Positions 19,780 to 55,739 of a stretch of 64,000 nt of DNA are shown piece after piece. The stretch spans positions 24,418,213-24,482,212 of the forward strand of contig OZ234493.1 of assembly GCA_965153455.1 (NCBI GenBank), given 5' to 3'. The stretch's first letter is position 1; each line of letters starts with the position of its first letter. Position numbers and translations under genes: made by a program. The notes under the pieces were generated by a model, which did not search any database, was not told the DNA's origin, and was given only the letters and a program-made list of their open reading frames with translations. The stretch comes from Sphagnum compactum. Taxonomy: Eukaryota.

Positions 19780-21330
19780 CAAACAACTACCAATAATAAT
19801 TGAAAAAGGAAATCGATAGACAATGATTAAAGGAAGAGGGAAATTGATAGACATAATTTGAAGAGGGAAATTGACAACAATTATTAGAAACACACTCAAG
19901 AAATGCATTAAAAAATTGCAACAATTAACATGGATAATCAAAAAAGGAATGTGACAAACATTGGATAGACATAAAACAAATAATGATGGAAAGGAATAAA
20001 TAGTAAAATTAAGGACATTGATTGAAAAGGGAAATCCATAGACAACAATTGAATGGAATCAACAGTATAACTTAGGAAACACATTTAAGAAATGCATTTA
20101 GGAATGAGAATAGCTAGCATGGACGATCGAAGACAAAAATTGAAATTAGATAGACATTGGACAAACATTGGACAAACACTAATTAAAGAAGGAAATTGAT
20201 AGACATTGATTGAAGGGAATTGACGGTAGTATTAGGAATGTCGCAACCCTAGCTTTGGGCTTGCGACCAAAGCGAGGGCTTGCAAGGGTGCGGGCCAAGA
20301 GGACGCTCGGGAGTCACATTTCATGCTCCCGGGAGTGCAGGAGAATGTGAGGGAATGTTCCCTCACAGTCCCAAGGGAACTCCCACTTTGGGAGTTGGAG
20401 TCCCGGTGGACTTTTGAATTTTTAGAGAGCAATTGCAGGGGACAAAACCTAATGGATTGAAGAGTTCTTCATATCATGAAAAAACTTTTAGTACGTAGAT
20501 GTCCAAAATGGGCTCACATGACCCATTTGGACACTTATAACACAAGTTATAGTCAAAAGAAGGGCCGGGAGTCAAATTGGTAGTTTTGATTCCCGACCAC
20601 CAAAAGTCAAGAATCAACCCAATTCCCTTGCATGCAGGTGGCGTGCGACATACCGTTGAAAAGCTCTCAACGAGGGCTACAATTTTGCTTTAGACCTCAT
20701 CTCAATCGAAGGTTTGCACGTAAAGTTATGGGCCTTCAAAGTCGTGAAAGTCTAAGCCGTGGGAATTTCGGGATTCCCACTTGGGAGTCCCGGGACAAAA
20801 AGCGATTTGGGTGCAGGCCTTGTGACCAGGCACGAAGTTTACTATATGGGGGAAGGTGGTGGCTTCCCCCGAATCCGAGCCGTGGTGAGTCTTGTGAGTC
20901 CAAGTTACCCGTGGCTCATCCTAGCACCAAAAGTGCTTTCACTATGCACTAACCAACTTCTTGTTTGGTTTGTGCAGATCTATGTGAGTGATTGATTACT
21001 TGTCGATTCATTCTAGTTTCATCCCAGAGCTCCAGCATGCCCTTCAACCCCCTCCAAAAGTGTTGTGAGCTAGAGAGTGTGGCCCAACTCCTTACCTTTT
21101 TGTTGTTTTCAAACCAGACTCACATTTGAGTTTCTCAAGAAGTTTGGGAGCACGTCAAGGAAGCACATTCAAGAATTGGAATAGTTGGCATGGATGATTG
21201 AAAAGGGAAATTGACATTGCATAGACACTAGGTTTAAGGGAATTGATAGTAAATGTAAAAAGCACATTCAGGAAGCGTGTTTAGGAATTGCAACATCCAT
21301 TGATGATTGAAGAGGGAAATCAACACAACC
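19780..21330. repeat. Degenerate GA-rich tandem repeat interrupted by the solo LTR
   Basis: Repeated (a/g)gggaaattga(ta)gaca and aaacac..aagaaatgcatt units on both sides of 20239-21157. Confidence 0.6.
20239..21157 (+). mobile_element. Solo LTR related to the Gypsy LTR family
   Basis: TGTCGCAACCC...GCACGTCA ends; 5-bp TSD AGGAA (20234-20238, 21158-21162); internal similarity to the reverse complement of the 16579-17398 LTR (e.g. tactatatgggggaaggtggtggctt); no PBS or PPT. Confidence 0.93.
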
Positions 21331-22863: not shown

Positions 22864-25800
22864 ATGCAGATACTGAATAAGCTGAAGCAACTGGACGCAT
22901 ATCCGAAGGTCAATGAAGATTTCTACAGCCGTACTCTTTCGGGCGGTCTTATCACTGTCATTTCTTCAGTTTTTATGGCTCTCCTTTTCATCACAGAGCT
23001 ACGTATGTATGCTTCGTTTCATACTCTTGATTCGCTCCTTCCCCCCCCCCCCCCCCAACCTCTCTTCTTGCTAGAGCCTTGGTCTTTCTCTGTCTTTTTC
23101 AACGAAGTAGGGTAGATCTATCGAGAGAAATGACAAAAAAATGTAGCTAATTCTTGAGGTTTTGGTTCCAGGATTATTTTTCTATCCACAAACAACAAAT
23201 CAGCTTGTAGTAGACACTGCCAGAGGAGAGACTCTTACCATCAATGTAAGTTGTGTGGCCCCCCCCCCCCCCATCCCCATTGACCTCAGATTTGTTTTAA
23301 CAACTCCCAAACCTTTTCTTTAGAAAATTCTCAACATCTGATCTGTGCACCTAGAAATCATTTTGAAGAATTTCCCAACATTAGATTGTGTGCATTGCCA
23401 ATTGCGCAAAAAATTCATTTCAATTTGCAGCCCAAAACTAAGAAAGCACAACATAGTTCTGCAAATTTTAGGGTTTTTCTGAATTTAGGGTTTTGATGGT
23501 GATACTGTCTCTTTGGGATCCCCCCATTCGAGCTTTTTTTGTGTCCTTCATTGGCATGTTGTGAAGTTTGATTTGTTAGTCATTTGGGAACTTTTATTGA
23601 TTTGTGCACAATATTATCTTGTGTGAAGCTCGATATTACATTTCCATCTCTAGCATGTTCTGCTGTCAGTTTAGATGCTCTGGACATCAGTGGAGAGCAA
23701 CACCATGATATTGTAAGTTTTTTCTCCTCCATTGGATCTATTGTTGGTTTTGCTCTCCTCCGTTGCTCAGTGTCCATTATAAGTTCTGCTCTCCTCTGTT
23801 GTCCATTGTCCATTGTAAGTTTGCTCTCCTCCAAATTGTCCATTGTTGCAAATGGCGGTGTGCTATAAGTATTTTTTTAAAGGGAATTCTGGACAAAACC
23901 AATTGTCTAACCGAGTGTTTTTCATGAAACAGAGGCACAACATTTTCAAGAAGAGACTGGATCCATCCGGCAAGGAGATTGCAGCCCCAAAAGCAGATAC
24001 TATCAACAGGCCCAAGGTATCATTTATCTTGTCCGTGAGAACTGTAGTTTGATTAGAAATTGAAATCTCCAGTAGTAGCCTTACATGCTATAGGTTTTTC
24101 GGGTGGAACATGAATTCTGGAAGCTGTGTAGGTTCATTGTTTTTGTGCTGAAAGTGCATTGTTTCTAATCTTTTTTATGTTTTTTTGAAAAAAATGATCA
24201 ATAGATTGGGAAGCCTTTGCAAAGGCATGGAGGCAGCCTTGAAGAAAATGAGAAATACTGTGGTTCTTGCTATGGTGCAGAAATGGTGAACATTCTCTGA
24301 CAGCTTTTTTTTCATTACCACTGTTAATATCATGATTGTCCTAGTTTTCATTTTTATTAGCTGTTGCACACGCTTTCTAAGTGATGCTAAAAGTTCATTT
24401 GCTGAGAGAATGGAACTCAGAATTTTTTTCTTTCGGAATGGGATGGATGGTGGGTTGCAGTCAGATGACCAATGTTGCAACTCATGTGAAGATGTGCGAG
24501 AGGCATATCGCCAAAAGGGTTGGGCTATAGGAGATCCTGAGATCATTGATCAGGTTTTTATGATAAGATCTGCTTCTGGTTACTGGAGCTTTTTATCCAC
24601 AACATTTGCACATTTCCTCCTTGTTGGAGATAAATTAAATTTGGTGATCATGTTATTGTCTCCATCTTGCAAATACTCAAAAGTTGGATGTGTTGGGTGG
24701 CAGTGCAAAAGGGAGGGATTTTTGCAGAAAATCAAAGAGGAGGATGGTGAGGGATGTAATGTGTATGGACACTTGGAGGTCAACAAAGTTGCTGGAAACT
24801 TTCACTTTGTATCTGTGAATTCCTTTCAGCAAGTGAACATGCTTCTCCTTGGCTTCCTGGAGTTCCAGATGGAAAGCTTCAATGTACTACTCCCTTGTCA
24901 CTTTTGTTTTCCTCTTTCTCTAAGTGTTGAGAAACTTCAAAAAACCAAGTAGGTATAACAAAATGTGCAGGAGCTAGTAGTAGCTAACCATGAGAAACAG
25001 CTGGTACCAATAGGGCAGTTGATGAAATTCTACTCGACTATGTATCAGAGGAATGCTGTCAAATTTTGAACACTACTTCATTGTGGGATGTGCTTCTCTG
25101 TGTTGTGAAATTATTGCACATTATGCACTGAGCACAATGGCTTTTTTAGTATCAAATGTCCTTTCTGAAGTACAATTTTGTTGTTCTTATCATTGATGTT
25201 ATCATGGCAGGTCAGCCATAAAATTAATGAGCTCAGTTTTGGTGCTCACTTTCCTGGAGTGGTGAATCCACTGGATGGGTACATTCTGCTCACATTTGTC
25301 TCTCATATCTCTTCACTGGCATTTCAAAGTTTGTTCATATTGAGTGCTCTCTGCTGCTGGTGGAGCAGATATTATCCTCCTAGGGCATCAACTTCTCAAG
25401 TGTTCTACCTAAGGCCTGAAGCCTAAACAGCAAGCATGCATACAGCCAGAAAACAAAAAATATCCTAATTCTGTGACCTGCTCTGCTAGGAAATGACTAC
25501 CCGAATGTGTTGATGAGGTACCCTACAGTATAGTAGCAAGGATAAACTCAGTAAAAAACTAACAGAAATGTAACACAATTCACAAGAAAGCTTGCTTGTT
25601 TGTGAAATCATTGTGACATATTAACTTGTGTGGATGAATGGAGGAACAGGGTGGTGAACATTCAGAAATCAGCTCATGGCATGTATCAGTATTTCATCAA
25701 GGTGAAATTGTCATCTGCTTGCTAGCTTGCTCCTTTGAAGACCATTTTTCTTACATTCTGGTCGCCCTAAGTTTTGAGCATATTATCATATACTACTCTA

Positions 25801-26950
25801 CACCCATGGTTGGCAGCTGATGAAATTTTGTTTAAACCATTGAGTAATTCCGAAGTATTCAGTTCAGGGTTCAGGGTTTAGGGTCTGGGGGACAGAGGGT
25901 CTTGGGGGCTTTTAATTCTCTAGGATCCTATGGCTTGACAAAGTAACAGACAACCAGGGGATGATTTTGTTCACTTTCTGAAGCAGGTGGTACCAACACT
26001 GTACACTGACATCCGAGGTCACAAAATTGCAACAAATCAGGTGTGCCAAAGTACTTCTAGCCCAGAACTTAAGACATCTTCAAATGGCAGTTGATTTCGT
26101 GACAGTGTTGTAAAAGGAAGATCAACTAAGTCTATGTTAATGGAGGGAGAAGAATCTTTGAGTGCTGTTTGAAGATTAGCTAAGAAGAAAGTTCAGGAAA
26201 GTTTTTCTGATTCTGGCTTGGTTTTGCAGTTCTCAGTGACAGAGCATTTCATTAAAGGAGGATCTGGCTCCCGGTATGTACCTGGGCTTTTCTTTATCTA
26301 CGATTTGTCACCCATCAAGGTAAGATATCCATTTTATTCCCTTCATATTTCTCATCTGATAGTGAAACAATTGGGTCAATTGCTCCCCACCTGAATCTTG
26401 CTGTTCCATGCTCTGCTAGAGAACAGTTTTTGCCACCATTGCCATCATCATGCTGCAAGACTGAACAATTCTCACTAGAGAAATCATCACCAATGACAAA
26501 CAGTTGTCAATTAACTTGAGCTGTGGATAATGATTTATGGCAGGTGAAATTTGTGGAGGAAAGGGTGTCTTTTTTGCATTTTCTCACAAATGTGTGTGCG
26601 ATAGTGGGAGGTAATTATTCTCCCCTTTTTGCATTTAGTAGCACTTAGGTGCTGGTTATGGTTTCTCCTGTGAAGACTACACTTTCTCCCAAATTACAAA
26701 AATTAGTGCATATTTTCTGCCTTTAGCACACGTTTTGTGCAGATGGTGAAATTTCCACTTTCAGCAATTTCATATGCCTTTTTTTACAATTATCAACACC
26801 ATAGATAACACATGTAGATTTCATACACTGTAGATAACACATGGCTTCTGTGATGCAGGAATATTTACAGTTTCAGGCATCATTGACTCATTTATATACC
26901 ATGGTCATCGTGCAATTAAGAAAAAGGTCGAGTTAGGAAAGTTGAGCTGA
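22864..26950 (+). CDS. ERGIC3: ER-Golgi intermediate compartment protein 3 (Erv46 family), 13 exons
   Basis: Exons 22864-23002, 23172-23245, 23629-23712, 23933-24016, 24205-24285, 24461-24553, 24704-24883, 25211-25278, 25650-25701, 25987-26040, 26230-26319, 26544-26610, 26859-26950, all GT-AG and in phase. Motifs LDAYPKVNEDF, YCGSCYGA, CCNSCEDVREAY, EGCNVYG..VNKVAGNFHF, YQYFIKVVPT, YDLSPIKV, FLTNVCAIVGG, KKVELGKLS*. Confidence 0.96.
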
Positions 26951-28234
26951 ATAGACTCAGCAGGTACTGAAGCATTTTGAACATTTAGCTAGCTAGTCCA
27001 TCCTTGTGAAAGAACCAAGGAGCCTCAAATTCTGGGCCCTAATTGTTCCCCATCTTGTTGAAGAATGTTAGTTATCCATATGGGAATTTTTCCTCAATAG
27101 GGTAGTTCTCATTTGGGCCTTTAGTTTCACTGAAATTCAAACTTGTTGACACTACTTATCCATAGTGTTTGCAGCAGCTGCTGCACCAGCAGCTCTTCCC
27201 CACCTAAAATCATTTTAGCTGTTAGCTCAACAATTTTCAGCAGAAAGATGACAGTACGGAGTCTAGAGCTTGTTGTCTGGATACATCAAGCCGATTGTTC
27301 CAAGAAAAGCTTGGGGTATCGTCCCCCTTGTTACAGTCAAATTGAGGACTGGAAGTAAAAAGAGGTGGCCGCCAGACCCAGCATTCTCTCCAGGAAGAAG
27401 TGGTTCTTTATTGGACCTGGAATTTGATTCACACAAATTGCAATTGTGCTGTTCTTGTGGGTTGTCTCCATGGCTCCACCCTCAGATGAATTGTTGGATG
27501 AAGTATCCTTCTTCCCTTTCTTTTGGACAAGATAATATAGTTCCATGTGTACTGAGATTAGATGATAGGTTCCATTTCTGTGTACCAAAGTTGGAAGCAG
27601 GAATTTCACTTTTGAATTTTTTACACAAGAAAACCTTAAACTCTCCTGAAGAAGGGCACAAAAAATTTGAAACCAAATTTTCCTCTGAAGATGGGTGATT
27701 CTTATTTCATACCGGTAAGGTCGGTTGATTACCTCAGTGTTGGAATTGCTGCGTCTCTGAGTCACATAAACTTGAAGTGGTCTTGATCATCAAGAGGTGT
27801 AGGCTGGTGTAGTATCATCCTGTCCAAGGGAGCTCTGTTTCAAGTTTGTAGATCACGCAATTTCTAGGACTTTGAATTGTGTTTTAGAGTTTCAGAATTA
27901 TAATCATATATTACCATAATTCCAAAACATGTCGGTACAAGATAACCTTGTACTCTTAAGAATTTCAAGGGGTTTAATAATATTGAAAGGTCCATAACAA
28001 CTGAACATTTTTTTGTTTTAAGGGGATTTGCCGAAGGTTTTGGAATGACAATATACAGAATCAAGGAAAAGAAATAGAAGATCAGCAAATTGATCAATTT
28101 TCCAAAACCAAGAATACCCGAAGAAAGAAAAAGATCATAGCTTTGATGTATTTCTATTGTGGTACTAAATCGTTTCCTTAAAAATTAGTAGTTTGTAATG
28201 TTAAACAAGTGTTTGTCATTGAAAATGGTAACGG

Positions 28235-29695
28235 TAGTGAACACTAACTGCATTTCAGGATGAGACTGCTGCATGTAGGAGTTGACGCATATTGCAAACA
28301 CAAAGTTGTATGCAATGAGGATAGTTGCGTTTTCACCTGACTCATTCAACTCCAGTCTCCAAAGATGCCTGGCATATCAAGCAACAACCCGAGCGGCAAG
28401 TACTGTCACTCAAATCAAAGGAGAAATTCCTGTACTGCCAAACCAAAAAGCAAGTTCAAGGTAACAAGGCAATCAGATACCAAGACTGCTGGCCACTTTT
28501 CAATTTGTCCTAGAAACAGACCTTTTCTTCAGTTAGGTTGGTGATGTCTGTCGAGTCTTGTCATTGCCAGGAAAGAAGGGATGAACAAAACATAGATATC
28601 TGAGGGTGTTGAGACCAAGAACTATTAAGTGGGCATAGAAAAGCTGCCCAATTAAGATTGAGAATCCTTTAAAACCATCATTTGAAGATTCCAATTGCAG
28701 AATCAGACATAATAAGACGATCCAAAAAATCAAACTCACAGGAGAGAACCAACGATAACTTACATAGAAAAACTGGAGAGAAATCAGACTTTTTAAGACA
28801 AACCAAAAAATCAAGCTCAAAAAAGGAAGAGCTAAAAGTTAGCTAAAAGGACTGCACAAATAGTACTCATTGAGACGTCAATTGATTCCTTAAAGCTTGA
28901 GTGAACAAACAAGAGGAACAAGCTATCTACCAAGAAATAGGCAAGAAAACAAAACTGCAGAAATACTACCATTAAGCTATGAAGAAACTCCATGGACGTA
29001 ATCTCATTCACATTGTTCAACCAGACATATTTGAAGACTGATGTCAAGGTGACAGTCCATCAAAACTGCAGACAACTCACTAAAGGTCCAACCTTGTCCT
29101 CATGCATCTGGCTACAATGCTTCCACTGTACTGGCAGAGGGCACACCTTGCCATATGTACCAATGGCTTAAGAGCCATCAAAGAAGCTATGGTTGCACAC
29201 ACTTTAGTCCATGTTCAATGATGGCATCAAGTGCCAACAATTTGCTCAAAATGACAATATATACCTACCTACTTGCAATACCTTGGGTTCTTGTGGATTA
29301 AATCCCCAAGCATAAACAGTTTGCCTGCATCCTCAGTGCAAGCATGGTACATAATGAAAATGATGATGCTACCGGTTGAGACACCTCTTGCACTTCATTC
29401 AGCTATTGAGTAAAGAAAGCCAGTTAGAGAGAACACAAACCCATCCAGTGTGTTTTAAAGACCTCCAAAGCCTCAAAATCTGGCAAGCAAGAAGTGCAAT
29501 GCAATCTTGCAACAGAGTCACAACTTACTGGGTTTTGAACCGCATCTTCCTTTCCTCAAATGAGCTGACATTGTGAAGCACAGAGTAAAGATAATCTGTA
29601 GTATTAAAGCAGGAGACAGCCATCAGACAACCAGACTCAAGACCCCTAAGAAAAAAAACAAAACAAAAACTGCTACCATACAAGAGCATAGGAAC
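28235..29695 (-). pseudogene. Inverted, internally deleted, unprocessed RBR pseudogene fragment
   Basis: Reverse complement aligns by eye to the neighbouring RBR gene in three colinear blocks: 29695-29225 to ~32805-33250 (intron 6 to exon 8), 29225-29060 to ~36715-36880 (intron 15), 28560-28235 to ~37972-38310 (exon 17 end, intron 17, exon 18). Example: ATGTACCATGCTTGCACTGAGGATG versus ATGTACTATGCATGCACAGAGGATG. Confidence 0.88.
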
Positions 29696-29965
29696 CAGGT
29701 TTAGGGTTTAATGGGGTTCTATTTCTATTTCCTTTGTGTTTGCTCCATTGCAGGACTTCCTGAAGATAGAAACACGAGTCCTGGACAAGACAACCCTCAA
29801 AGGTGATGTTGGCAAGCAAGAGTATAGGACTCAGGTTTAGGGTTTAGGGTTTAATGGGGTTCTATTTCCTTTGTGCTTGCTCTTTTGCAGGACTTGCTTA
29901 AAATAGAAACAGGAGTCCTCCTGGACAAGACAACACTCAAAGAAGATGTTAGCAAGCAAGCAAGA
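29690..29965. repeat. ~140-bp tandem duplication starting with telomere-like TTTAGGG
   Basis: caggtttagggttt..aatggggttctatttc...cctggacaagacaac.ctcaaag..gatgtt.gcaagcaag occurs twice. Confidence 0.85.
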
Positions 29966-30093
29966 GTGAGACTTGCTACCTTTGAAATAACAGTGTGGAG
30001 CTCGGGCAATATATTTTGTCTCAATAAGACAAAAAAGCCAACCACCTGCCAAGAGAATCCGCACAGTGCATACTAGGTATCAAACTCAGAAAG

Positions 30094-30149
30094 GCGGGAA
30101 ACCCATCCCTTCGTCGTCCGCAACACAGTTCTCGCTGGTTTTTTCCCGC
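30094..30149. promoter_or_regulatory. Two oppositely oriented E2F sites upstream of RBR
   Basis: GCGGGAAA at 30094-30101 and TTTCCCGC at 30142-30149, both matching the E2F consensus TTTCCCGC, 330-390 bp before the RBR ATG. Confidence 0.75.
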
Positions 30150-30480
30150 GCATTTGTGCAAGTTTTGATACCGAACCGAATCAATCAGGTCTCGCGAATC
30201 TGCCCACAATGATCAGATCTGTTGCACCAATGATCGATCACAGAGACCGGCGAGCAAGGAACGAGTGTGCATCGCATTGCAGTTTGGAGTCTGCAATCGG
30301 GCGTCCGATGACCGTCCCCTCCCCAACTGCCATAGTGCCTTTCTGCCTTCCCTTGAGTAGAAGGAAACACGGCTTCAAAACAAAGGGAAGAAGCAAACGA
30401 GGAGTAGCAGCTTCTTCTTCTTCTTCTTCTAAAGAGATGTGGACTTCAGCAACAGAAGTAGGAATAGCAGCAGCAGGAGG

Positions 30481-30821
30481 ATGGCGAACAACAACAAGTC
30501 TGCGGAAATGGATGTCGCGGGTGGAGGAGTTATGAGGAATGGTGGAGGAGACTTGAATCGGTCTTTGAGAAGGGCAGCTTCGCAAGCTTTCTGGGACGGA
30601 ATGGAAGCGCGCTTCATGGAGCGCTGTGAGGTAAGTACCTTACTTTAGGTGTTTCGCAATCAGCAGATTGCGATGAAGAATCAATCTCTAGTGCGTCAGG
30701 TGCATATCGCTGGATGCATCGCAGCGAGTAATCCTTTTTGTCGAGAAGAAAACCTCTCCCTCCCTTAAGCACTGTTGCTCTCTCTCTCTCTCTCTCCTCA
30801 TTTTCCTCGTTTTCTTTCTGC

Positions 30822-30880
<59 letters not shown>

Positions 30881-33800
30881 TCTGTGTGTGTGATAGATAC
30901 TAGCGTGGCTTTCTTGTCAGGTTGGCCTTGGTCTGGGTGAGAAAATGTTGCTGCGAGTTTCACGTTTCTTCGAAGACAGCAAGCCACTCCTGCTCGCCAA
31001 CATAGAGACCTTTGGAACTGGCTCAGTAAGTGTATCTATGTGTGTGTTTCCGTTTGTGTGCACCGTGTTGTTCTTTGGACTAGCTTGATTTTGTGTTCTC
31101 GCCAGATGTTGTTTGCTAGTAGTTTCACGGAGCAGTTTTTGCGGCAAATGATAAAGCGGCACCTTGGGCAGAAAAGAATGCTTATATTCCTTGGTGTGCA
31201 TTTTGTTGTGCATTTTGTAGACTTTTGAAGAAGAGATTTGGTTTTTCCTCTGCCTCTTATGTTCCTATTTATCTTCATAACCGAATTCCAGTATCACCTG
31301 ATTGTTTAGTGTGTTTTTGTCAATGACCAGATTGAGGAGGCAGAGCGATTATGGAATGCATGTACTTTGTATGCTGTGAAGATGTTGAGCAGTGCAACAT
31401 GTGTTGGAGAGGATGCTGACGCTGTTGAAGGTGGTGCAGCAGCAGGATTTACACTTACTCAACTTCTGCGAGTGACCAAGATTAGGTTTGTGTTGTGGGT
31501 TGTTTTGGCTCCTGTGTGTCTACAACATACCTCACTCATGTTCATGCCTTTGAATCTTCACACATGAATAGTTACTATTGTTGGGAGTTGATAGGTGCAC
31601 TTTGAGAGGTCATTCCATGCCCCATGTGTGTTTGTGTGTGTTTCTCTAATTTGTTCTGTGACTTGATCTGTTGTGAACATCAGTGCAATGGATCTTTTCA
31701 AGGAGCTTCCACAGTTTCTTGTGAAAGCAGCCCCAACTCTTGAAGCTTTGTATGGAGATAGCTGGGAAAAGCATCTTCAGGTGAGGTTCTTGTCAAGTGG
31801 TTCTTGTGGTTCAATGAAAGTGATTCTACCTTGGATAAATGGTTTTGAAATCACTACATGTATTTTGCCTGTTGGTGCTGGACCAGGTGAAGGAAGTGCA
31901 AGCCAATATTGTCCATGTGACAGTTCTCTTCAAGTAAGGAAGTCAATTGACCTACATTCATGTTCTGTATTTAGTTGCACAGAAGCTATGCATGTCTTGA
32001 AGAAGAAGAAGAAGAAGAAGCTGAGAGTTCCATTTACCTTTTTAGTCCAAGCTCTTGATTGTTTCTGACAATAGATTGGTTTGTTTCTGGCAGCTACTAC
32101 AATCGAGTGTATAAGGAACTTTTCTTCTCTTCAGAATATTCTGTTGGAAATGTGAATGGGTCTCCATCAAATGTCAAGGGTGGCTTTTCTCCTCACATGC
32201 AATTTGGGTGGATGCTTTTCCTGGCACTACGGATGCATGTCCTCAATCAGTTCACTGACCTGGTGACTTGCACCAATGGACTTCTGGCTATTATTGTACG
32301 CAGCCATTCCCTTGTAATGTGTTTCTTCAACATGCTAGGTACATATTAAGGGCTACTTTCACAGATGTAATTGCTTTCTCACCAGCAATGTGCTTAAACG
32401 ATATGTTCAGGGTGTAAGAGGTCCCAGCCAATACCACCTATGTAGAGGGAAGTAATGGCAGAGTAATCACTGCCATTCATGGTGAAGGTGATGGTCTGAT
32501 ACTTTGTGGGTGACTCTCACAAGATCATGACTGCAATCATGCTTGTTGTATGTGTTTTGGTGTGGATGGAACTGACACAACAGTTGCCTTCAAAGTGTTA
32601 TTTTGCAGTTATCTCTGTAATCTCATAGATAAGTCTTGATTACTTTCTCCTATCATTTGAAGTGGAATAGCTCTTGGTCATAATTTATCGTGTCCAGCAG
32701 ATCTAGCTATCTAAGCATGTGGTGCCTTACTTTCAGAAACAACATGTGACTTGGCATCCAGAAACTGGCACCCTTTCTGATGATTTGAGTGTAGCTTAAA
32801 GCCTTATGTTCCTAATCTTGTATGGTAATTGTTTTTTTCTTGAGTCTGATTGTCTATGGATGTCAATGGCTGTAATGATACAGGTTATCTTGATGCTTCA
32901 CATGCCACCTCATTTGAGGAAAGTCTGTGTCAAAGATGCTTCAAAATTTGGTAAGTAGTGACTCTTTTTCAGGATTGCGTGCACCTGCTTGCCAAGTTGT
33001 GAGGCTTAGGAGCCCTTGAATACATGATGCTCGTGTACTGCAAACACCTAACTGGCTTTCATGCTGACCAGCTAAGCGAGGTCCAAAAGGTGTCAATTTG
33101 GTTGCATCCTTCTGCAACATGTACTATGCATGCACAGAGGATGTGTCTTGCATGGTGGAGAAGGCAAACAGCATGATTGTGGATTTATTTAAGAAGAAGC
33201 CAAGTGATGAAAGCATATCTTGTCATCCAAAGCAAATAGCTGGCATTGATTTAGGTCAGACTGTCAGTTCACATCATCCCTGCCACCTTCAATATATATT
33301 GCAACGTTTGCCATTTTTTGCCAGATTCATCAATCATGTGCATACACCTCTGAAGGGGGAGACATGTCATTTGTTCTACTGTTGACAGATGGTCTTGCTT
33401 ACTTTGAGGGCTTGATGGAGAATGGTTGCATAACATCAAATTTATACATTTTGGAAAAGGATTATGAAGAGGCTTACCAGAGTCGTGGGGAGCTAGATGA
33501 ACGGATATTCATCAATGGAGAAGTGAGCTTGATGGGCTGTGTCTCTTGTGACTCACCAGATATTTCTGCTTATAAGGTGCAAACTTTGCCCCAATTCTCC
33601 TTTCCTCCAGACCTTCTTTCCTGTGATGAAGACTTCTGTGACAATCCGATAACCTTGCCTGTCATGGACAGATGCCAGGTATCTTGTCATGAGTTTGTTC
33701 AATCACTAATTGACTTTGATTAATATTGGTTCCTGTCTTTCAATTCCAGCGCAAGTATGACACAATATCATCACCCGTGCGGGGTTCAGCAGTTTCAACA

Positions 33801-36800
33801 GGGGTGCTGCTGTCATCAGTAAATGCTTCACCTTGTTCATCACCAGTCAAGATGGGAGGATCTTCGACAGCCAATAGCAACAAGATAGCCCCGCCTACTC
33901 CAGTTAGTATCACTATGACCACTGCTAAGTGGCTCCGTGATGTCATAACCCCACTCCCAGCAGAGCCTTCCCTGGAGCTGCAGCTTTTCTTTCGGACATG
34001 TGACAGGGACATCTCCTGTGATGTGAGGAACAGAGCACAGGTTTTGCTGGAATCAATCTTTCCCAGCAATGGTGTGGGGAACTGGCGAGGGGTGCAGGGA
34101 AGTTGCCTAGAGGACACGATCTGGGTGGAGCAACGTAGACTTGAAGCCTTGAAGCTGTACTACAGAGTCATAGGGGCCATGTGCCGGTCTGAGGCACAAA
34201 GACTGCAAAACAGCAACCTTACTTCTCTCCTTTCCAATGAGCGGTTCCACCGCTGCATGATTGCCTGCTCAGCTGAGCTTGTCCTTGCCACACACAAGAC
34301 AGTAACCATGACTTTCCCAGCAGTTTTAGAGCCAGCAGGAATAACAGCCTTTGACTTAAGTAAAGTAATTGAGTACTTTGTGCGGCATGAGGATACTCTG
34401 CCACGGGAGTTGAAGAGGCACCTCAACTCAATAGAAGAGAGACTTCTAGAGAGCATGGCTTGGGAGAAGGGATCATCAATGTATACATCCCTCATTTTTG
34501 CAAAGCCAAACCTTGCAGCAGAAATTAACCGCTTATGTCTGATGGCTGATCCAATGCCATCACTGGACAATCTTGGCTCAGAAGAGGGTCCAACACCAGC
34601 AACTACACAATGCTTGGCTGGAGGTATGCTCAGTTCCTGAGAGTATTATTTATCAAAAGTCCTGCTACTCATAGTTTTCCATGGCCAGAGGAGGTCTTTA
34701 ACTACTGCCCTGTATCAAAGATAATCATGCTGGAGTCCATTCTCAACACTTGACGAGTTGAAGTAGCACAGATGGATTTGTCAGATTAGTTAATGTGATC
34801 CATTGGTTCATGAATAGAGATTCAAGCACATCCTCTTGCCTTTCATTTGTGCATTGTGTGGAGCAGCTTGAGTCTGTGAGGATACAAGACAAGAACATGA
34901 ATCTGGCCTGCAGTTTTTTGTTCACTAGTGAAAAAAAGAGAAACTCTACTTTTTGCAGGGGAAATGTCAGGAGCTTTGTTTTCAACACAGAAGGCAGTTT
35001 CAGCATCCCCTGCCCGAAATGGAGGAGCTGCAGGTTCATATGGAAGTGCTGAGCAAGTGGGACCTGCATGTTTTAATTCACCAGTGAAAGAACGGCTGTC
35101 AGCATTCTCTACCTTCGTCTCTCCTTTGAGAAACCGCTTGAGAGCTCCACTGCAATCAGCCTTTGCCAGGTGTGCACATTTATGTGAGGTTGAACTGCAC
35201 AAATAAGCTGATTTTTTTTTTTTTTTTAATGTCACTTTTTCATTATTGTTACCCTTGAAACTTCAAGCAACATGAGAATGTTTCTTTGTTTGCACTGTTT
35301 AGCCCACAGAGACCAAGCCCACTCGGTGGCGGGGAGACTTGTGCAGAGACAGTCATCAATGTTTTCTTTCAGAAGGTGACATTGAGCTCAGAAATTTCTT
35401 GGGTTCTCTTTGTTTTGCATGTTCATACATACACCCCTGTGTATGGATCAAGCCTTATCTCTGCTTTCTAATTGGGAAGGGATTTCACTGAATTATGTGG
35501 CTTCTGCAATGAATTTTGTGCAATGGTCCTTGCCATTGCTCTAAACCTCCTTCAAGCTTGCAATAAGTCTGATCTCTTCTTTCTTCTCTTTTTTCTTTCC
35601 AGGGGTTAACAAGGAAATTTTATCTTGTGGTTACTGTACACAAAGTATTAAACTACCTGCATCTATCAGGCTATGTCTATCATCATCTTCCAATCTGTCA
35701 TCGGATTGGCCTCAAGTGGTGATGAGTTAATGTGCAGGTACTTATTCTTGCAGCTGTAAGAATACGAAATTTATGTGAACACCTTGGGCAGTCACAGCAG
35801 TTAGTTGAGCATGTGTACCGAGTGTTCCAGCACACACTGCAACGTGAGACTAGTTTATTTTTCAATCGACACATTGATCAACTCATACTCTGCTCAATCT
35901 ATGGTGTCTGCAAGGTCAGCCCACCACCATGATTTTATCACATCCTTGTTGGGCACTTAATTCTTGTCTTCACTGTATCCCATTCTGAGCAGAAGGGAAA
36001 GTCTGAGTTCAATAGAGCTTCTTTGAGTTGTCCCACTGTTAGTCCTCTGAATAGAAGAAGCACATATACTCAACAAAGAGACATGCCCCAGCACAGTGTA
36101 ATTGCCAGCTTGTGACAAGTGTTGTTGGTTTACTGGCACAGGTTAGCAAAGTAACAGTTACATTTCGTGACATTATACATCAGTACCGAATGCAGCCACA
36201 GTGCAAATTTCATGTATTTCGCAATGTCTTCATTGACTTACCTCCCTGGCGGAGAAATGGGGTATGTACTCTGCAGCCTTATGAAATGAAGTATATTTTG
36301 CAGTTAGAGGGTTAGTGTCAGGTGCAATCTGCTTCACTGTGTTTGCATAGACTTTCCTATTTGTTATTACATAGCAGTTTTAACCTTGTTCTGATTGCAG
36401 AAGGGAGGAGGACAGGAGACAGGTGATATCATCAAGTTCTACAATGAAATTTTTGTACATTCCACCAAAACATTTTTGCTGCACATAGGTTCTGCACCTG
36501 TTTCAAGCAACACCCATGGTTCAGATGAAGGAAATTGTCCCAACAGTAAGGGATCTTGGCCTTTCTGAAGGTTTTGATGGGGCTGTCCATGTGAAGCTGT
36601 AGATATGGTCTGGCTGTGTGTTTGTTATGCACATCTGGTAGGAAGATGTGTCCAGGCTTTTGGACCTGCATTCTTTCAAATGAATGTTTTAAATCTCAGC
36701 TGTTGATGACGTTGGACTCATCAGTGAAAACAGGCTAAATAAAGAGTGTTAGACAGCAGTTTCTTTTCTGGTTCTTCAGTAATTGTGCGTTTTGCAAGGT

Positions 36801-38215
36801 GTACCTGTTGCCAGTATAATGGAAGGGTTGAAGCCAGATCTATGAGGGAAAGATTGGACTTCTTGTGAGTTAGTTTTGCTGGTATACTTGTAGAGCAAAT
36901 AAATAGCAAAATTATCAGTGAACGGAAACATTTTTGAACCATGTTTTCAAACCTGCAGCCCAATGGTGCAGTCACTTGTTTCTTCCTGTTATTTTCTTCT
37001 CCTAATTTTAGGACAGTGCAATTGTATGATGCAGGTGAGTCACCTGCCTCTCCAAGATGCCCTGCTTTTCCAGTGCTTCCAGACATGTCTCCCAAAAAAG
37101 TGTCAGCCATGCACAATGTGTATGTATCACCACTTCGGGCTAGCAAGGTATGTCGTCCAGAAATACAACCCAACTTAAAAGGTAAATAATGTGCGCCTGT
37201 TCTGTTGGTCACCTTTGCTGTTTTCTATTATTGATTGATCTGTAATGAAGGGGAGCACCTGCTCTGTCCTTTTCTGTCCAAACTTTCCATGAGCATTGAC
37301 TTCTTAAAGAGGGCTCAACTAGTTGTAAGGTGTATCAAATTGCAGCCCTGGCATGTATATATTTGGTCTGATGTCTTGAGTGCTAGCCAACATTATATCT
37401 TCCCCTTGTTTGATACATTAGGAACTCAGTACAGAGATATTTATGCAATGGTTTGCCCAAAATTTTGGGCAGATTTCTGTGTACCCACCATTGGCAGCTG
37501 ATGAAGTTAGTGGATGGTCATGGCAGCTGATCCCTTCTATTCATGATGAAGGTGCTGGTCTGAAACTTTATGAGTGACACTCATGAGGTTATGACTGCAT
37601 TCATTCTCATTGTGTTAGTTTCTGTTTCACTGTACCTTACTGTGCAGTTGCATTCAAAGTGTTGTTGTGGAGTTCTCTCTGCAATCTCAGTAATGTGATT
37701 TTTTTGTATTGTGCTAATAATCAATCAGTCATGCTCTTTTCCCAAGACCAATTGAGTTCATGTCCTGCCTTTGTTTGCCAAGTGCATGCAACTCCAGGAT
37801 CTTGTTCCCTTACTAGGGCTAGCAGTGAGTCAATTTCCTGTGTTTGTATGGGCTACAGCAACAGAACTGATATCTGAAGATGATATTGCAGGCAGATTCT
37901 CTGGCGTCACCACACATGCACAGTCTATATGCATGTGTTGGAGAGAGTGCATATGCATATCAAAGCCCTTCAAAGGACTTGACAGCTATCAACAACCAAC
38001 TGAAGAAAAGGTCTGGTTCTGGAGCTAACCAAAGCATAAGTAGGTGTGGCCATGGGTCTTAGTATCTGATTAGCCTTATTCTTGCTTTGAACTTGTTCTA
38101 TGGTTCAACAGCTCCAGAAATACTATCTGATTCAAATGACAGTATGTGGGATGTTTGGGATGGCAGGCGCTTGGGGAGACTGAATTTCAGTGAGGCAGCC
38201 TTGGTAAGTGACTAA
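30481..38215 (+). CDS. RBR: Retinoblastoma-related protein, 18 exons
   Basis: Exons 30481-30630, 30921-31025, 31331-31485, 31684-31780, 31887-31933, 32094-32295, 32884-32950, 33072-33254, 33389-33576, 33750-34623, 34959-35169, 35303-35375, 35738-35914, 36142-36261, 36401-36545, 37035-37147, 37892-38010, 38167-38215. Pocket [41 protein letters not shown]. Pocket [34 protein letters not shown]-terminus: [29 protein letters not shown]. The exact start and final exon are less certain. Confidence 0.96.
30826..30878. repeat. (GA)n microsatellite in RBR intron 1
   Basis: Long gaga run; a shorter (CT)n lies at ~30778-30796. Confidence 0.95.
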
Positions 38216-40220
38216 ATGGTGGCAACTACCCTCCTTTCCATGCAACAACCTGTGTACAAAATGTGTTGACTCCTGTTTGCAGCATCCTGAAGTGTAGAAG
38301 TATATTCACTGGCACTGCCCTTGTGTGCTCTCCAGGTCTTGGAGAAATCTTGACTTTTGTCAATCTTCTGTAGATTGTAACTGTTAAAAAAACAGGTAGG
38401 TGTATACATAATCAGGCGGTTGTGACTAGCAGACACAGCTACAGGTGAAAAGAGCAGCAGATGGTTTGTTTTATTTGTTTACCTTAGGTGGCAACCATTG
38501 CCTGCCCACAATTTACTTCACAGTAGGGGAATCAACAGGAAGTAAATCACTCAGGTGTGGTCCTAAAGAGCCCCTGTTAACTGACCCTGCACTCTACACA
38601 ATATTAGCTTTGTGGAGGAGGTTACATTACATATGTTTATGTGTTCACATCAAAGTGTAGTTGGGGCGGGGGGGAGAAGGGGGTTAGTCTCTCTCCCCAT
38701 TCACAGGTTGGCTGCGTGAGTGCAGTTGAATGTGTTGTCACCCTTGTCTGGAGTTTGATTGTGAGCATTCATACGAAGGTCTGGTTCATCTACCCTTTTC
38801 TTTCGTCAACTGGGCAAATGCAAGTCTAGAGGTATGTTGAGTTCTTACCGACAAATGGTTGCACACTGAAAGAAAGAGGGCTTACTTTATCAGCGCAAGA
38901 TCAGGTCCACTGGCAGCAGTAAAATGGCCTGTACACTGGACTTTGGATGAAGTACATCCTTCAAATAGAAAGGGTTTGAATTAGTGTTGGGTAGGTACAA
39001 TGCTGAAACCCTGGTATAATAGACTGATAGGTGTCTTGGTATCGAAGAACAGACTAGATTGGTAAGACTTGAGGCAGTACCAGCATCGGACCAGGACACG
39101 AGGTAATACCAGCCTTGTAGTAGTATTTTGAGCATGCCCCCAACATTGCGAACTTCAGACTTTTTCCCTATACTTTTTCTTGTATAGTGATATGTTGCTG
39201 GGTCTCGACCTCTCAAGTCACTTATCACTAGGTTATATCTTTCAAGTTGGTTTAAATCAAGTATGGAGAAGTTCTCATTACTTATGAAGATCCACTTTTG
39301 TTGCGAGTGGAGCACTATTGGAGGTTAATCATTTGTTAATGAATTTTAATGTTTTTCTTCTTATCATGTATGTTAAAGAGTTATATAATTAGGCTTTCAT
39401 TCACATCATTTTTATTAGTTGATTAACCATCTTTAATCCCCCATTTAAAGAATGATATCACAATAAAGAATGATATTACAATTTTCACACTATCAAATGG
39501 ACTTTTTATAAATTTTTCATCTGTTGGAGTTGATTCACGGTATCTTGCAACGACCTTATTTTCCGACAAAGAAATTGATTTTTTTTTAAAGTGTAAATTC
39601 AACCAACGTTTATATTGTTTGTTAAATTTAACCAAAAACTTGAATAATTTTTTTAAAAAAAAACTGGTTGCTACCAATGTTGGGTGGGTATCAACTTTTG
39701 GGCATACTTATCAAAAAAATGTATCAAAAAGAAATCCAAATGTGAAACCTAGTAGGCCCAAGCCTAGAAGTGTTTTTAGCAAACTTAAAATTGACGAGCA
39801 TAGACATGTGTACATTATATCTTTGTAGAAGGGCATGAATAATGGGTATGGAAAAAGGTGATGCCCATTGGACATAAACATGGGCATGTGCATTAACAAG
39901 CGACCATAATTAACATGGTTTTGAAGGAAAAAAAAAAAAATCAATTTACAAATAAATTTTAGTGTGAAGTTGTCAACCACAATTTATAAAAATTGTTCTA
40001 ATAGAAAGTTACATCTATATTCTAAGTTTACTTCCAAAACTAAATGTTTATAACTACTAGAATTGCCTTGTACATAATTACATAATTATAGTTGAGGTGG
40101 TGAAAAACTCTAGCAAGTTGGAATTGCTAATGCAATGTGCCACATATAACTATTGCTTTCGGTTACAAACTTACAAATTTGATCCAAAGATGTGGTGGGT
40201 GTAAAGTGCATTCTCAGATA

Positions 40221-55326: not shown

Positions 55327-55739
55327 TATTACATATAGTAAAGGAACAATGAAGCTTCCCTTTAATCTGGACAGACAATAGCATTAGGCCTTTCTTACTA
55401 TTCTATTCACAAAGAGAACAGACACACGTGCAGGCGCGCACGCAAGAGAGCAGATGATCAAGAAAGATGGCGAGCGAGACAGTAAGGATGGCAATTCCGG
55501 CTATTTAGATTCTCAAAGAAAACAAACAGACGTGCATGCACGCACACACACACACACACACAAAAACACAGATTGAAAAGGTTGCGAGAGGTTGTCGTCT
55601 GCTGCATCTGTGGCACACGTCTGATAGGGCTAGCAACAATGTGTACAAGTGTGGTGGGATGGTGCACTTGATGATGCAACCCTGCACTTACACTTTGTAG
55701 AAGCTATATTAAGAGGAACTTGCACATGGCTTTCGCAAC
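55327..55739 (+). repeat. Third, partial direct copy of the outer part of the inverted-repeat arm
   Basis: Matches 52192-52636 but is more diverged and has one copy of the 32-bp unit that is tandemly doubled in both arms. Confidence 0.93.

Follow-up and report, generated by a model that had tools for sequence, protein, structure and literature searches.

This locus raises the question of what occupies the apparently intergenic DNA between an ERGIC3 gene and a retinoblastoma-related (RBR) gene in the 64,000 nt of Sphagnum compactum DNA analysed here ("the window"): whether it holds a displaced copy of part of RBR, and, if so, where that copy came from and whether it does anything. The features needed to answer it, in window coordinates, are as follows.

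22864-26950, plus strand: ERGIC3 (ER-Golgi intermediate compartment protein 3), CDS 22864-26947, stop codon 26948-26950
28224-28563, minus strand: block 3 of the copy, from late in exon 17 through intron 17, exon 18 and its stop region into ~107 nt of 3'UTR (parent 37970-38322)
28564-29057, no strand assigned: spacer, 494 bp with no detectable RBR similarity, standing in place of exon 16 and its flanking introns
29058-29233, minus strand: block 2, 172 bp from within RBR intron 15 (36546-37034; parent 36710-36881)
29234-29695, minus strand: block 1, with the last 76 nt of intron 6, then exons 7 and 8 with intron 7 between them (parent 32808-33254)
29681-29960, plus strand: tandem duplication with a unit of ~137-143 bp, adjoining the copy (repeat families D1, D2, D4 and D5)
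30508-38215, plus strand: RBR (retinoblastoma-related protein), the parent gene, with 18 coding exons and 1013 codons, from a tblastn exon map with refined splice junctions

The reference for the RBR exon map was the 1013-aa RBR of Sphagnum tenellum (P0001), in which the Pfam domains are RB_A (aa 439-637), RB_B (aa 758-885) and DUF3452. The parent model is intact, running from an ATG at 30508 to a TAA at 38213-38215 with no internal stop; it is 99% identical to P0001 in pocket A, and 923/1013 residues matched over the full length in a draft made before exon 7 was corrected. In the refined map exon 7 is 32884-32950 and exon 8 is 33072-33254. The upstream neighbour was identified as ERGIC3 from Pfam ERGIC_N and COPIIcoated_ERV matches in colinear plus-strand ORFs, the last of which ends in ...KKKVELGKLS and a stop, and from 12 colinear tblastn HSPs that span aa 1-385 of S. 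balticum ERGIC3 (P0124, 385 aa); the 120 matches listed included no S. magellanicum ERGIC3 record. The intergenic space is 3557 bp, and the copy begins 1273 bp after the ERGIC3 stop. Both gene models thus place the copy where the first-pass annotation of this DNA had put it, head-to-head with RBR in the gap from the 3' end of ERGIC3 to the RBR promoter.

That annotation had described the interval as the reverse complement of three colinear blocks of RBR, introns included, and had suggested a BLASTN comparison with the gene as a check. When 28000-29900 was compared with the window (blastn, word size 7), we obtained three significant minus-strand HSPs: 29328-29642 to 33143-32838 (69.9% over 329 columns, E 2e-29), 29074-29206 to 36871-36740 (72.9% over 133 columns, E 3e-15) and 28401-28557 to 38144-37976 (69.6% over 171 columns, E 2e-11). 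A profile search (nhmmer --max, E<=1) with 27500-30400 as query and the rest of the window as target gave exactly three matches, all on the minus strand and colinear with the gene: 29139-29695 to 33313-32808 (E 4.7e-39), 29058-29233 to 36881-36710 (E 6.3e-14) and 28224-28563 to 38322-37970 (E 4.5e-27); no further RBR pieces were found in the window at this threshold. At the protein level, tblastn with P0001 (E<1) gave a single minus-strand match in the interval, aa 282-323 to 29352-29233, with 40% identity. The annotated bounds, 28235-29695, agree with the nhmmer outer limits of 28224-29695, and the exon assignment (exons 7-8, part of intron 15, and the stretch from late exon 17 to exon 18) is identical on the refined map.

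The three blocks have diverged from the gene to a similar extent. Block 1 is 70% identical in its 227 exon-derived columns and 68% in its 227 intron-derived columns, block 2 matches at 129/184 aligned columns (70%), and block 3, in a MAFFT pair alignment, is ~70% identical in exon-derived and 66% in intron/UTR-derived columns. A weak nhmmer extension of block 1 to 29139 overlaps block 2, placing the junction between the two at ~29206-29240. The 494-bp spacer has a parental counterpart of 1088 bp (36882-37969), and is not a recognisably diverged intron 16 or exon 16: its Smith-Waterman score against that interval was 13, compared with 13.4 +/- 1.4 for shuffled sequence (142/200 shuffles reach 13), and against the whole RBR gene 16, compared with 15.4 +/- 1.1 (60 shuffles). 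The spacer is A-rich on the plus strand (AT skew 0.31) and holds an internal 38-nt direct repeat (28701-28738 and 28782-28819).

The coding content of the copy is heavily damaged. Exons 1-6 and 9-16 are missing, pocket A and pocket B included, such that only ~aa 244-327 and 970-1013 of the protein are represented; the earlier claim that the pocket exons are deleted and no RBR ORF is left is therefore borne out. The exon-derived parts carry 11 indels and four in-frame stops, made up of seven indels (one a 17-nt deletion) and two stops in block 1 and four indels and two stops in block 3; 21/128 codons are hit by gaps and just 50/128 keep the parental residue. Introns 7, 17 and part of 15 are nonetheless present, which indicates a copy made at the DNA level and rules out a processed pseudogene.

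Divergence is also spread as would be expected of non-coding DNA. Identity is 71.7% in exon-derived sequence (n=300, Jukes-Cantor (JC) distance 0.356 +/- 0.042) and 69.5% in intron/UTR-derived sequence (n=590, JC 0.392 +/- 0.032), and the differences at codon positions 1, 2 and 3 are 29.7%, 26.0% and 29.3%. In a protein tree the end branch of the copy is 0.97, compared with 0.004 for the parent. Since identity is equal in exon- and intron-derived parts and flat across codon positions, the alignments indicate neutral decay, with no apparent sign of coding constraint since the copy died. As a counterpoint, exon-derived identity is only marginally above intron-derived identity, whereas a larger gap would be expected if the copy alone had drifted and the parent's exons had been under constraint; we attribute the small gap to a putative ascertainment effect, in which only the best-preserved intron pieces can still be aligned. 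We conclude, with a probability of roughly 85%, that 28224-29695 is a non-processed pseudogene relic, a truncated, internally deleted and inverted partial duplicate of the adjacent RBR gene.

The tandem duplication that abuts the copy offers a relative date. Its two units, 29681-29820 and 29817-29960, are 82% identical (blastn E 6e-36), and the first ~15 nt of the unit are the end of block 1, so the duplication is later than the copy's 5' breakpoint. It also carries three telo-box-like AAACCCTAA matches (29701-29709, 29837-29845 and 29844-29852), half of the six AAACCCTAA matches in the window, with 0.85 expected.

From these observations we infer the following order of events. A segment of the ancestral RBR locus, introns included, would have been copied, inverted, to a site immediately 5' of the gene; the copy may never have had a promoter and exons 1-6, or may have lost them early. 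A single deletion of ~3.4 kb would then have fused exon 8 to mid-intron 15, with the loss of exons 9-15 and both pocket domains, and the exon 16 region would have been lost, or replaced by the 494 bp of unrelated A-rich sequence. What was left would have drifted neutrally to ~70% identity, over a time on the scale of the Sphagnum whole-genome duplications (~10^8 years), and a later tandem duplication, its units now 82% identical, would have doubled the boundary where the relic meets the RBR upstream region.

The direction of copying is probably from RBR to the relic, because the exon-derived parts of the copy match RBR protein segments conserved across land plants. Which RBR lineage it came from is a finer question. 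The first-pass annotation had read the copy as an old local inverted duplication, to be tested by a tree with the other RBR paralogues; its inversion and its age (~70% identity, JC 0.36-0.39) stand, and copying from the adjacent gene's own lineage is the favoured reading. In a protein tree of 118 columns the copy falls inside Sphagnum (support 97/97) and groups with the local RBR paralogue lineage (91/96, not starred); the pseudo-translation used for it came from aligning the copy with the adjacent gene, and the placement may therefore lean slightly towards that gene. The two S. magellanicum RBR models carry locus tags of chromosomes 08 and 02, and Sphagnum chromosomes 1, 2, 5 and 8 are described as descending from a single ancestral chromosome in extracts of one genome study (PMC9946827). 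The copy might be older than the divergence of the two Sphagnum RBR paralogues, or derive from the chromosome 02 paralogue. Indeed, an AU test rejects neither placement with the other paralogue (p-AU 0.109) nor placement outside both (p-AU 0.145), and the copy shares the S in 'KRS' and the H in 'MYH' with the other paralogue and outgroups. Its distance of 0.36-0.39, probably an underestimate, overlaps the range of the Sphagnum paralogue Ks peaks at 0.406 and 0.643, dated to 102-122 and 189-247 Ma in the same extracts (PMC9946827). Nonetheless, the best tree joins the copy to the local lineage, it carries that lineage's derived residues (T in 'ACTED' and H in 'PxHLRK'), and it aligns to the adjacent gene equally well in its intron-derived and its exon-derived blocks. 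We consider either non-local origin unlikely. Wherever it arose, comparison of JC distance with the Ks peaks suggests an age of the order of the Sphagnum genome duplications.

A relic in this position could in principle act on its parent, and the first-pass annotation had suggested that it modulates RBR dosage, through ERGIC3 read-through that yields antisense-like RNA or through divergent activity of the RBR promoter that yields a sense-like lncRNA; such RNA might form duplexes, give rise to siRNAs or interfere with transcription at the RBR promoter. As to strands, the proposal is right, since ERGIC3 is on the plus strand and its read-through would be antisense-like to RBR, while transcription leftward from the RBR promoter would be sense-like. 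The geometry is also permissive: ERGIC3 ends 1273 bp upstream, and the other end of the copy is ~400 bp from two E2F-type sites and a CpG-richer RBR upstream region. A precedent would be rice, for which extracts of one study document antisense small RNAs from pseudogenes paired with a neighbouring parent gene (PMC2708354).

The regulatory role itself finds no support in the sequence, and we regard it as very improbable. With ~70% identity and frequent indels, the copy and RBR have no perfect 21-mer in common, the longest exact match being 18 nt. There is a 21-mer with a single mismatch to RBR (three such 21-mers overlap at one site, copy ~28514-28534), and at <=3 mismatches per 21-mer the copy matches the mRNA in just three short clusters. 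However, the strongest of these lies across the paralogue-type exon 17 donor (between 38010 and 38011), a probable splice donor, and if that donor is used the mature mRNA lacks part of this match. A folding scan of 78 windows of 160 nt on both strands was flat, with a minimum z-score of -1.54 and no hairpin; we found no internal inverted repeat in the copy and, inside 28224-29695, no Rfam match at E<=1 (none in the whole window at the gathering score). Nor does CpG content set the copy apart: observed/expected CpG is 0.20 in the copy, 0.26 in the flank and 0.22-0.23 in gene bodies, such that its CpG depletion, as a methylation footprint, is no different from that of its surroundings. In RBR intron 1, a (CT)n/(GA)n simple repeat at 30748-30901 accounts for all 20 Rfam matches at E<=1 over 27000-31000, every one of them far below the gathering score.

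The splice signals point only faintly the other way. Five of the six splice-site dinucleotides within the blocks are intact in the copy, and intron 7 keeps an identical CTAAC branch-point-like patch, but at 70% per-base identity the retention of at least five of six has P 0.10, which is not significant; we rejected it as evidence of selection, and it fits, weakly, with a putative transcript having been spliced in the past or still being spliced. The neutral pattern of decay likewise argues against a conserved function. Thus the reading that the annotation had kept in reserve, a dead relic, best fits the sequence evidence, and the copy most likely does nothing sequence-specific today, forming spacer DNA that separates the RBR promoter from the 3' end of ERGIC3. 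It is a long shot that transcription is what has preserved the relic, whether divergent transcription from the E2F-controlled RBR promoter or ERGIC3 read-through, with a non-coding RNA, spliced or antisense, or transcription itself tuning the RBR promoter. If true, it would be a ~100-million-year-old self-derived cis-regulator of a dosage-sensitive cell-cycle gene, whose footprints would be the five retained dinucleotides, the identical branch-point-like patch and the near-perfect 21-mer.

Discontinuous pieces of one gene with unrelated sequence between them are a pattern known from captured gene fragments. The copy consists of three discontinuous genomic RBR pieces, introns included, two of them separated by unrelated sequence, and the window has further LTR-like and inverted repeats elsewhere (10-21 kb and 52-58 kb), so a gene-capturing transposon of the Pack-MULE or Helitron kind could be imagined to have taken the pieces and inserted them beside the gene. 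However, a search for terminal inverted repeats flanking 28224-29695 gave none, and the only inverted pair that brackets the copy is a 23-nt polypurine/polypyrimidine match whose members are 2.85 kb apart; with no convincing terminal inverted repeats to define an element, we rejected transposon capture. None of the 38 ORFs of at least 45 aa in 26950-30400 reaches the Pfam cut-off, none has a transposase, helicase or reverse-transcriptase domain, and the seven with a single sub-threshold match (E 0.023-0.082) match nothing transposon-related. Self-BLAST revealed no second copy in the 64-kb window. Moreover, the pieces keep the strict order of the gene, share one orientation and lie directly next to their source, which makes duplication followed by deletions the simpler account, and we consider capture scarcely credible.

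An inverted duplicate that has decayed in place has practical consequences. It would best be masked, or marked as a fragment of an RBR pseudogene, to avoid its being mistaken for a gene, a lncRNA with 'RBR homology' or an assembly error, and reads or small RNAs that map to it need to be interpreted with the parent gene in mind. The relic would be an old snapshot of RBR exon and intron sequence, and its survival suggests that the ERGIC3-RBR intergenic region has been structurally stable over a time comparable with that of the Sphagnum genome duplications, which fits the stability of Sphagnum genomes reported in extracts of the genome study (PMC9946827). Were the copy transcribed and shown to affect RBR, it would be a natural case of a decayed inverted copy that regulates the gene it came from.

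Among known systems, inverted-repeat silencers such as Arabidopsis PAI1-PAI4 have long, nearly identical arms that give rise to dsRNA and DNA methylation. The locus described here resembles them in being an inverted duplication that involves a functional gene, with read-through from an upstream promoter possible, but the RBR arms are fragmentary and 30% diverged, without a perfect 21-mer, and CpG depletion is not above that of the flanks; as the arms share ~70% identity, are broken by indels and lie at least 3.1 kb from each other, we rejected a hairpin silencer of the PAI type. In the inverted-duplication model of MIRNA origin, two facing arms of a target gene lie in one short transcript that folds into a hairpin with near-perfect complementarity to the target. 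The RBR copy is likewise an inverted partial gene duplicate that could in principle yield RNA complementary to the gene. Unlike the loci of that model, which exists for the birth of plant MIRNA genes (extracts of PMC3237417), it is a single arm with no internal inverted repeat and no stable fold, and the other 'arm' is the RBR gene itself, at least 3.1 kb away and 70% identical. A proto-MIRNA locus was rejected on the lack of a facing-arm hairpin (no inverted repeat, minimum z -1.54, no Rfam match). With processed pseudogenes the copy shares the state of a dead gene copy without a promoter, but such retrocopies are intronless and end in a poly(A) tract, whereas introns 7, 17 and part of 15 are kept here.

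The closest likeness is to the duplicated pseudogenes and gene fragments that lie beside their parents in plants and have been catalogued across whole genomes, for example in rice (PMC2708354). Like them, the RBR copy was made at the DNA level, has introns, truncation, frameshifts and stops, adjoins its parent and shows neutral decay. Two features set the RBR copy apart from typical members of that class: it is inverted head-to-head directly before its parent's promoter, and at ~70% identity it is unusually old for a recognisable relic, with a divergence comparable to the Ks of the Sphagnum duplications. The titles and opening lines of the abstracts found on Sphagnum and retinoblastoma-related contain nothing on this locus. 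With intron homology, lesions, a lack of coding constraint and an intact parent, the copy has the marks of a non-processed pseudogene fragment, and our verdict is that it is in all probability a real, ordinary and previously undescribed relic of that kind.

The interval 28224-29695, between ERGIC3 and RBR, is best read as an ancient partial duplicate of the adjacent RBR gene, inverted and under neutral decay, a reading to which we assign a probability of about 0.85. Three minus-strand blastn HSPs (69.6-72.9% identity) link it to RBR, and nhmmer at E<=1 returned exactly three matches, all colinear and all on the minus strand.

Features of the ERGIC3-RBR neighbourhood, with domain positions in P0001, a 1013-aa S. 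tenellum RBR
22864-26950, plus strand (as RBR) and upstream of it: ERGIC3, with ERGIC_N and COPIIcoated_ERV matches in colinear ORFs
28224-28563, minus, to parent 38322-37970: block 3, nhmmer E 4.5e-27
29058-29233, minus, to parent 36881-36710: block 2, nhmmer E 6.3e-14
29139-29695, minus, to parent 33313-32808: block 1 match, nhmmer E 4.7e-39
30508-38215, plus: RBR, encoding a retinoblastoma-related protein
aa 114-249: DUF3452 (Pfam)
aa 439-637: RB_A (Pfam)
aa 758-885: RB_B (Pfam)

On the refined exon map, block 1 derives from the end of intron 6, exon 7, intron 7 and exon 8, block 2 from within intron 15, and block 3 from the end of exon 17, intron 17, exon 18 and 107 nt of 3'UTR. The first-pass annotation had described a reverse complement of three colinear RBR blocks, from exons 7-8, part of intron 15, and the end of exon 17 through exon 18; the feature is real and was accurately described, one of its bounds (28235-29695) lying 11 bases from ours. 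Of the copy's 1472 bp, about 978 can be aligned to the parent. The A-rich 494-bp spacer (28564-29057) sits where exon 16 would be expected and has no similarity to the parent beyond that of shuffled sequence (score 13 versus 13.4 +/- 1.4; 142 of 200 shuffles reach 13).

The introns retained in the copy indicate a DNA-level duplicate and rule out a retrocopy, and since its exon-derived parts match stretches of the RBR protein that land plants conserve, copying ran from the gene to the intergenic region. Exons 1-6 and 9-16 are missing, so that both pocket domains are absent; with 11 indels in exon-derived sequence and four stops in the conceptual reading, the claimed loss of the pocket A/B exons and of any RBR ORF is borne out. 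Only 50 of 128 codons still encode the parental residue. Blocks 2 and 1 meet at about 29206-29240, suggesting that one event joined exon 8 to intron 15; this could have been a single deletion of ~3.4 kb or a template switch during duplication.

The parent itself is intact. In its pocket-A exon, identity is 99% to P0001, 98% to S. magellanicum CY35_08G098100 and 88% to the second Sphagnum paralogue (S. jensenii P0004, S. magellanicum CY35_02G093600), which marks the window as nuclear DNA of a peat moss. Mapping P0001 by tblastn, followed by junction refinement, gave 18 coding exons and 1013 codons, ending in TAA at 38213-38215 without an internal stop. Two donor sites are plausible for exon 17 within 37998-38045: 38010/38011 gives ...KKR/RLGRL..., as found in the second Sphagnum paralogue and in further land plants, and 38043/38044 gives a form 11 codons longer, similar to the S. 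tenellum model. Exon 8 (33072-33254; 61 codons, in frame) is skipped in both S. magellanicum models; these variations may reflect either alternative isoforms or differing annotation. A 174-bp direct repeat (75% identity, E 3e-26) in introns 6 (32452-32625) and 16 (37517-37689), which could represent either a small repeat element of introns or an old duplication within the gene, lies outside the copy's content. ERGIC3, whose last exon ends in ...KKKVELGKLS and a stop, is covered from 22864 to 26947 by 12 colinear tblastn HSPs of its 385-aa S. balticum orthologue (P0124), and its stop lies 3557 bp from the RBR ATG. Between that stop and the relic, overlapping frames of 143 aa (+) and 149 aa (-) at 27267-27786 have no Pfam match above cut-off; they may be part of the ERGIC3 3'UTR or chance ORFs.

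Decay of the copy follows the prediction of neutral drift. Identity is 71.7% in exon-derived columns (n=300; JC 0.356 +/- 0.042) and 69.5% in intron- and UTR-derived columns (n=590; JC 0.392 +/- 0.032), as expected of the old duplication proposed, and differences are flat across codon positions 1, 2 and 3 (29.7, 26.0 and 29.3%). The exon-intron gap is smaller than expected were the parent's introns also drifting freely, which we ascribe to all but the best-preserved intron pieces having dropped out of the alignment; intron distance is thus probably underestimated. Healey et al. (2023; PMC9946827) describe two Sphagnum genome duplications with Ks peaks at 0.406 and 0.643, dated to 102-122 and 189-247 Ma, and descent of chromosomes 1, 2, 5 and 8 from a single ancestral chromosome, which fits RBR paralogues on 08 and 02. 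On these dates, and provided that introns and synonymous sites diverge at similar rates, the relic's age would be on the order of 10^8 years. ERGIC3 also has Sphagnum paralogues (P0126, P0127 and P0143; 85-86% and 76% identity across the exon used as query), so the ERGIC3-RBR pair may have been duplicated jointly in these genome duplications.

We placed the copy in a protein tree using a codon-wise reading guided by the parent alignment, which may bias the tree slightly towards the adjacent gene. Its 11 partners (118 of 136 columns kept) were the window's own translation, S. tenellum of the local lineage A, S. jensenii and S. magellanicum of paralogue B, two Physcomitrium, Ceratodon, Marchantia, Calypogeia, Diphasiastrum and Amborella; the S. 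magellanicum A model, in which these regions are missing, was omitted. The copy is placed within Sphagnum (97/97), with an end branch of 0.97 versus 0.004 for the parent, and groups with A (91/96, not starred). Constraining it with B costs 5.8 lnL (p-AU 0.109), and a topology uniting A and B to its exclusion costs 5.3 lnL (p-AU 0.145); the AU test rejects neither. Diagnostic residues are likewise divided: the copy shares H and a derived T ('ACTED') with A, and S and H with both B and the outgroups. The claimed local origin, after the A/B split, is therefore favoured by these sequences, not proven.

The RBR upstream region (29696-30507) has a CpG o/e of 0.61, versus 0.20-0.26 around it, and is the sole CpG-richer stretch of the neighbourhood. 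It contains two facing E2F-type TTTCCCGC sites, at 30094-30101 (-) and 30142-30149 (+), ~360-410 bp upstream of the start codon; these are two of eight TTTSSCGS matches in the window (5.4 expected). Judged by composition and motifs, the region probably represents the core promoter of RBR, as would be in keeping with an E2F-targeted gene. A tandem duplication (29681-29820/29817-29960; unit ~137-143 bp, 82% identity) holds three of the window's six telo-box-like AAACCCTAA matches (0.85 expected). Its opening ~15 nt are the end of block 1, indicating that the copy's 5' breakpoint is older than the tandem.

Could the relic regulate RBR through RNA or transcription? The strand logic proposed earlier is correct: ERGIC3 read-through would yield antisense RNA, and bidirectional RBR promoter activity a sense-like lncRNA. 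The idea is legitimate, given the siRNA pairs of pseudogene and parent described for rice (PMC2708354); five of six splice dinucleotides are intact (P 0.10, not significant), and a branch-point-like CTAAC patch is identical, also not significantly. However, the longest exact match to RBR is 18 nt, no 21-mer is perfect, and the three 21-mers with one mismatch fall at one site, which straddles donor 38010/38011 of the other paralogue and other land plants and may be split in mature mRNA. Twenty 21-mers match the mRNA with <=3 mismatches, in three clusters (shuffled copies, 0 to 0.15). Across 78 segments of 160 nt, taken from both strands, folding was never more stable than in shuffled sequence (minimum z -1.54), the copy interval has no Rfam match or internal inverted repeat, and its CpG o/e (0.20) resembles the flank (0.26) and gene bodies (0.22-0.23). 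The sequence thus lends the regulatory claim no support, and we consider such a role very improbable. Separately, a (CT)n-(GA)n foldback in RBR intron 1 (30748-30901) draws 20 sub-threshold Rfam miRNA-family matches (best 38 bits versus a gathering score of 90), which we judge a simple-repeat artefact.

Mobile-element capture is very unlikely: no terminal inverted repeats bracket 28224-29695. None of 38 ORFs (>=45 aa) in 26950-30400 reached the Pfam cut-off, none of their seven weak matches is transposon-related, and the relic has no second copy within the 64-kb window. Other repeats occur elsewhere: LTR-like direct repeats of 0.8 kb (10429-11230/16579-17398; 6 kb apart, 96% identity) with a diverged third copy (20464-21051, 73%), and an inverted pair (52193-53171/58247-57269; 979 bp, 98%) with a partial third copy (55328-55709, 92%). 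Both sets are probably transposable elements and have no connection with the RBR relic.

Compared with known systems, the inverted partial duplicate differs from a retrocopy, from a hairpin-type proto-MIRNA locus (inverted-duplication model; cf. PMC3237417) and from a PAI-type inverted-repeat silencer, the last two comparisons drawing partly on general background. By contrast, it agrees in every respect tested with a non-processed pseudogene fragment. Judging by titles and the beginnings of abstracts, no paper found on Sphagnum and retinoblastoma-related proteins is about this locus, and we treat the relic as an undescribed member of that well-known class.
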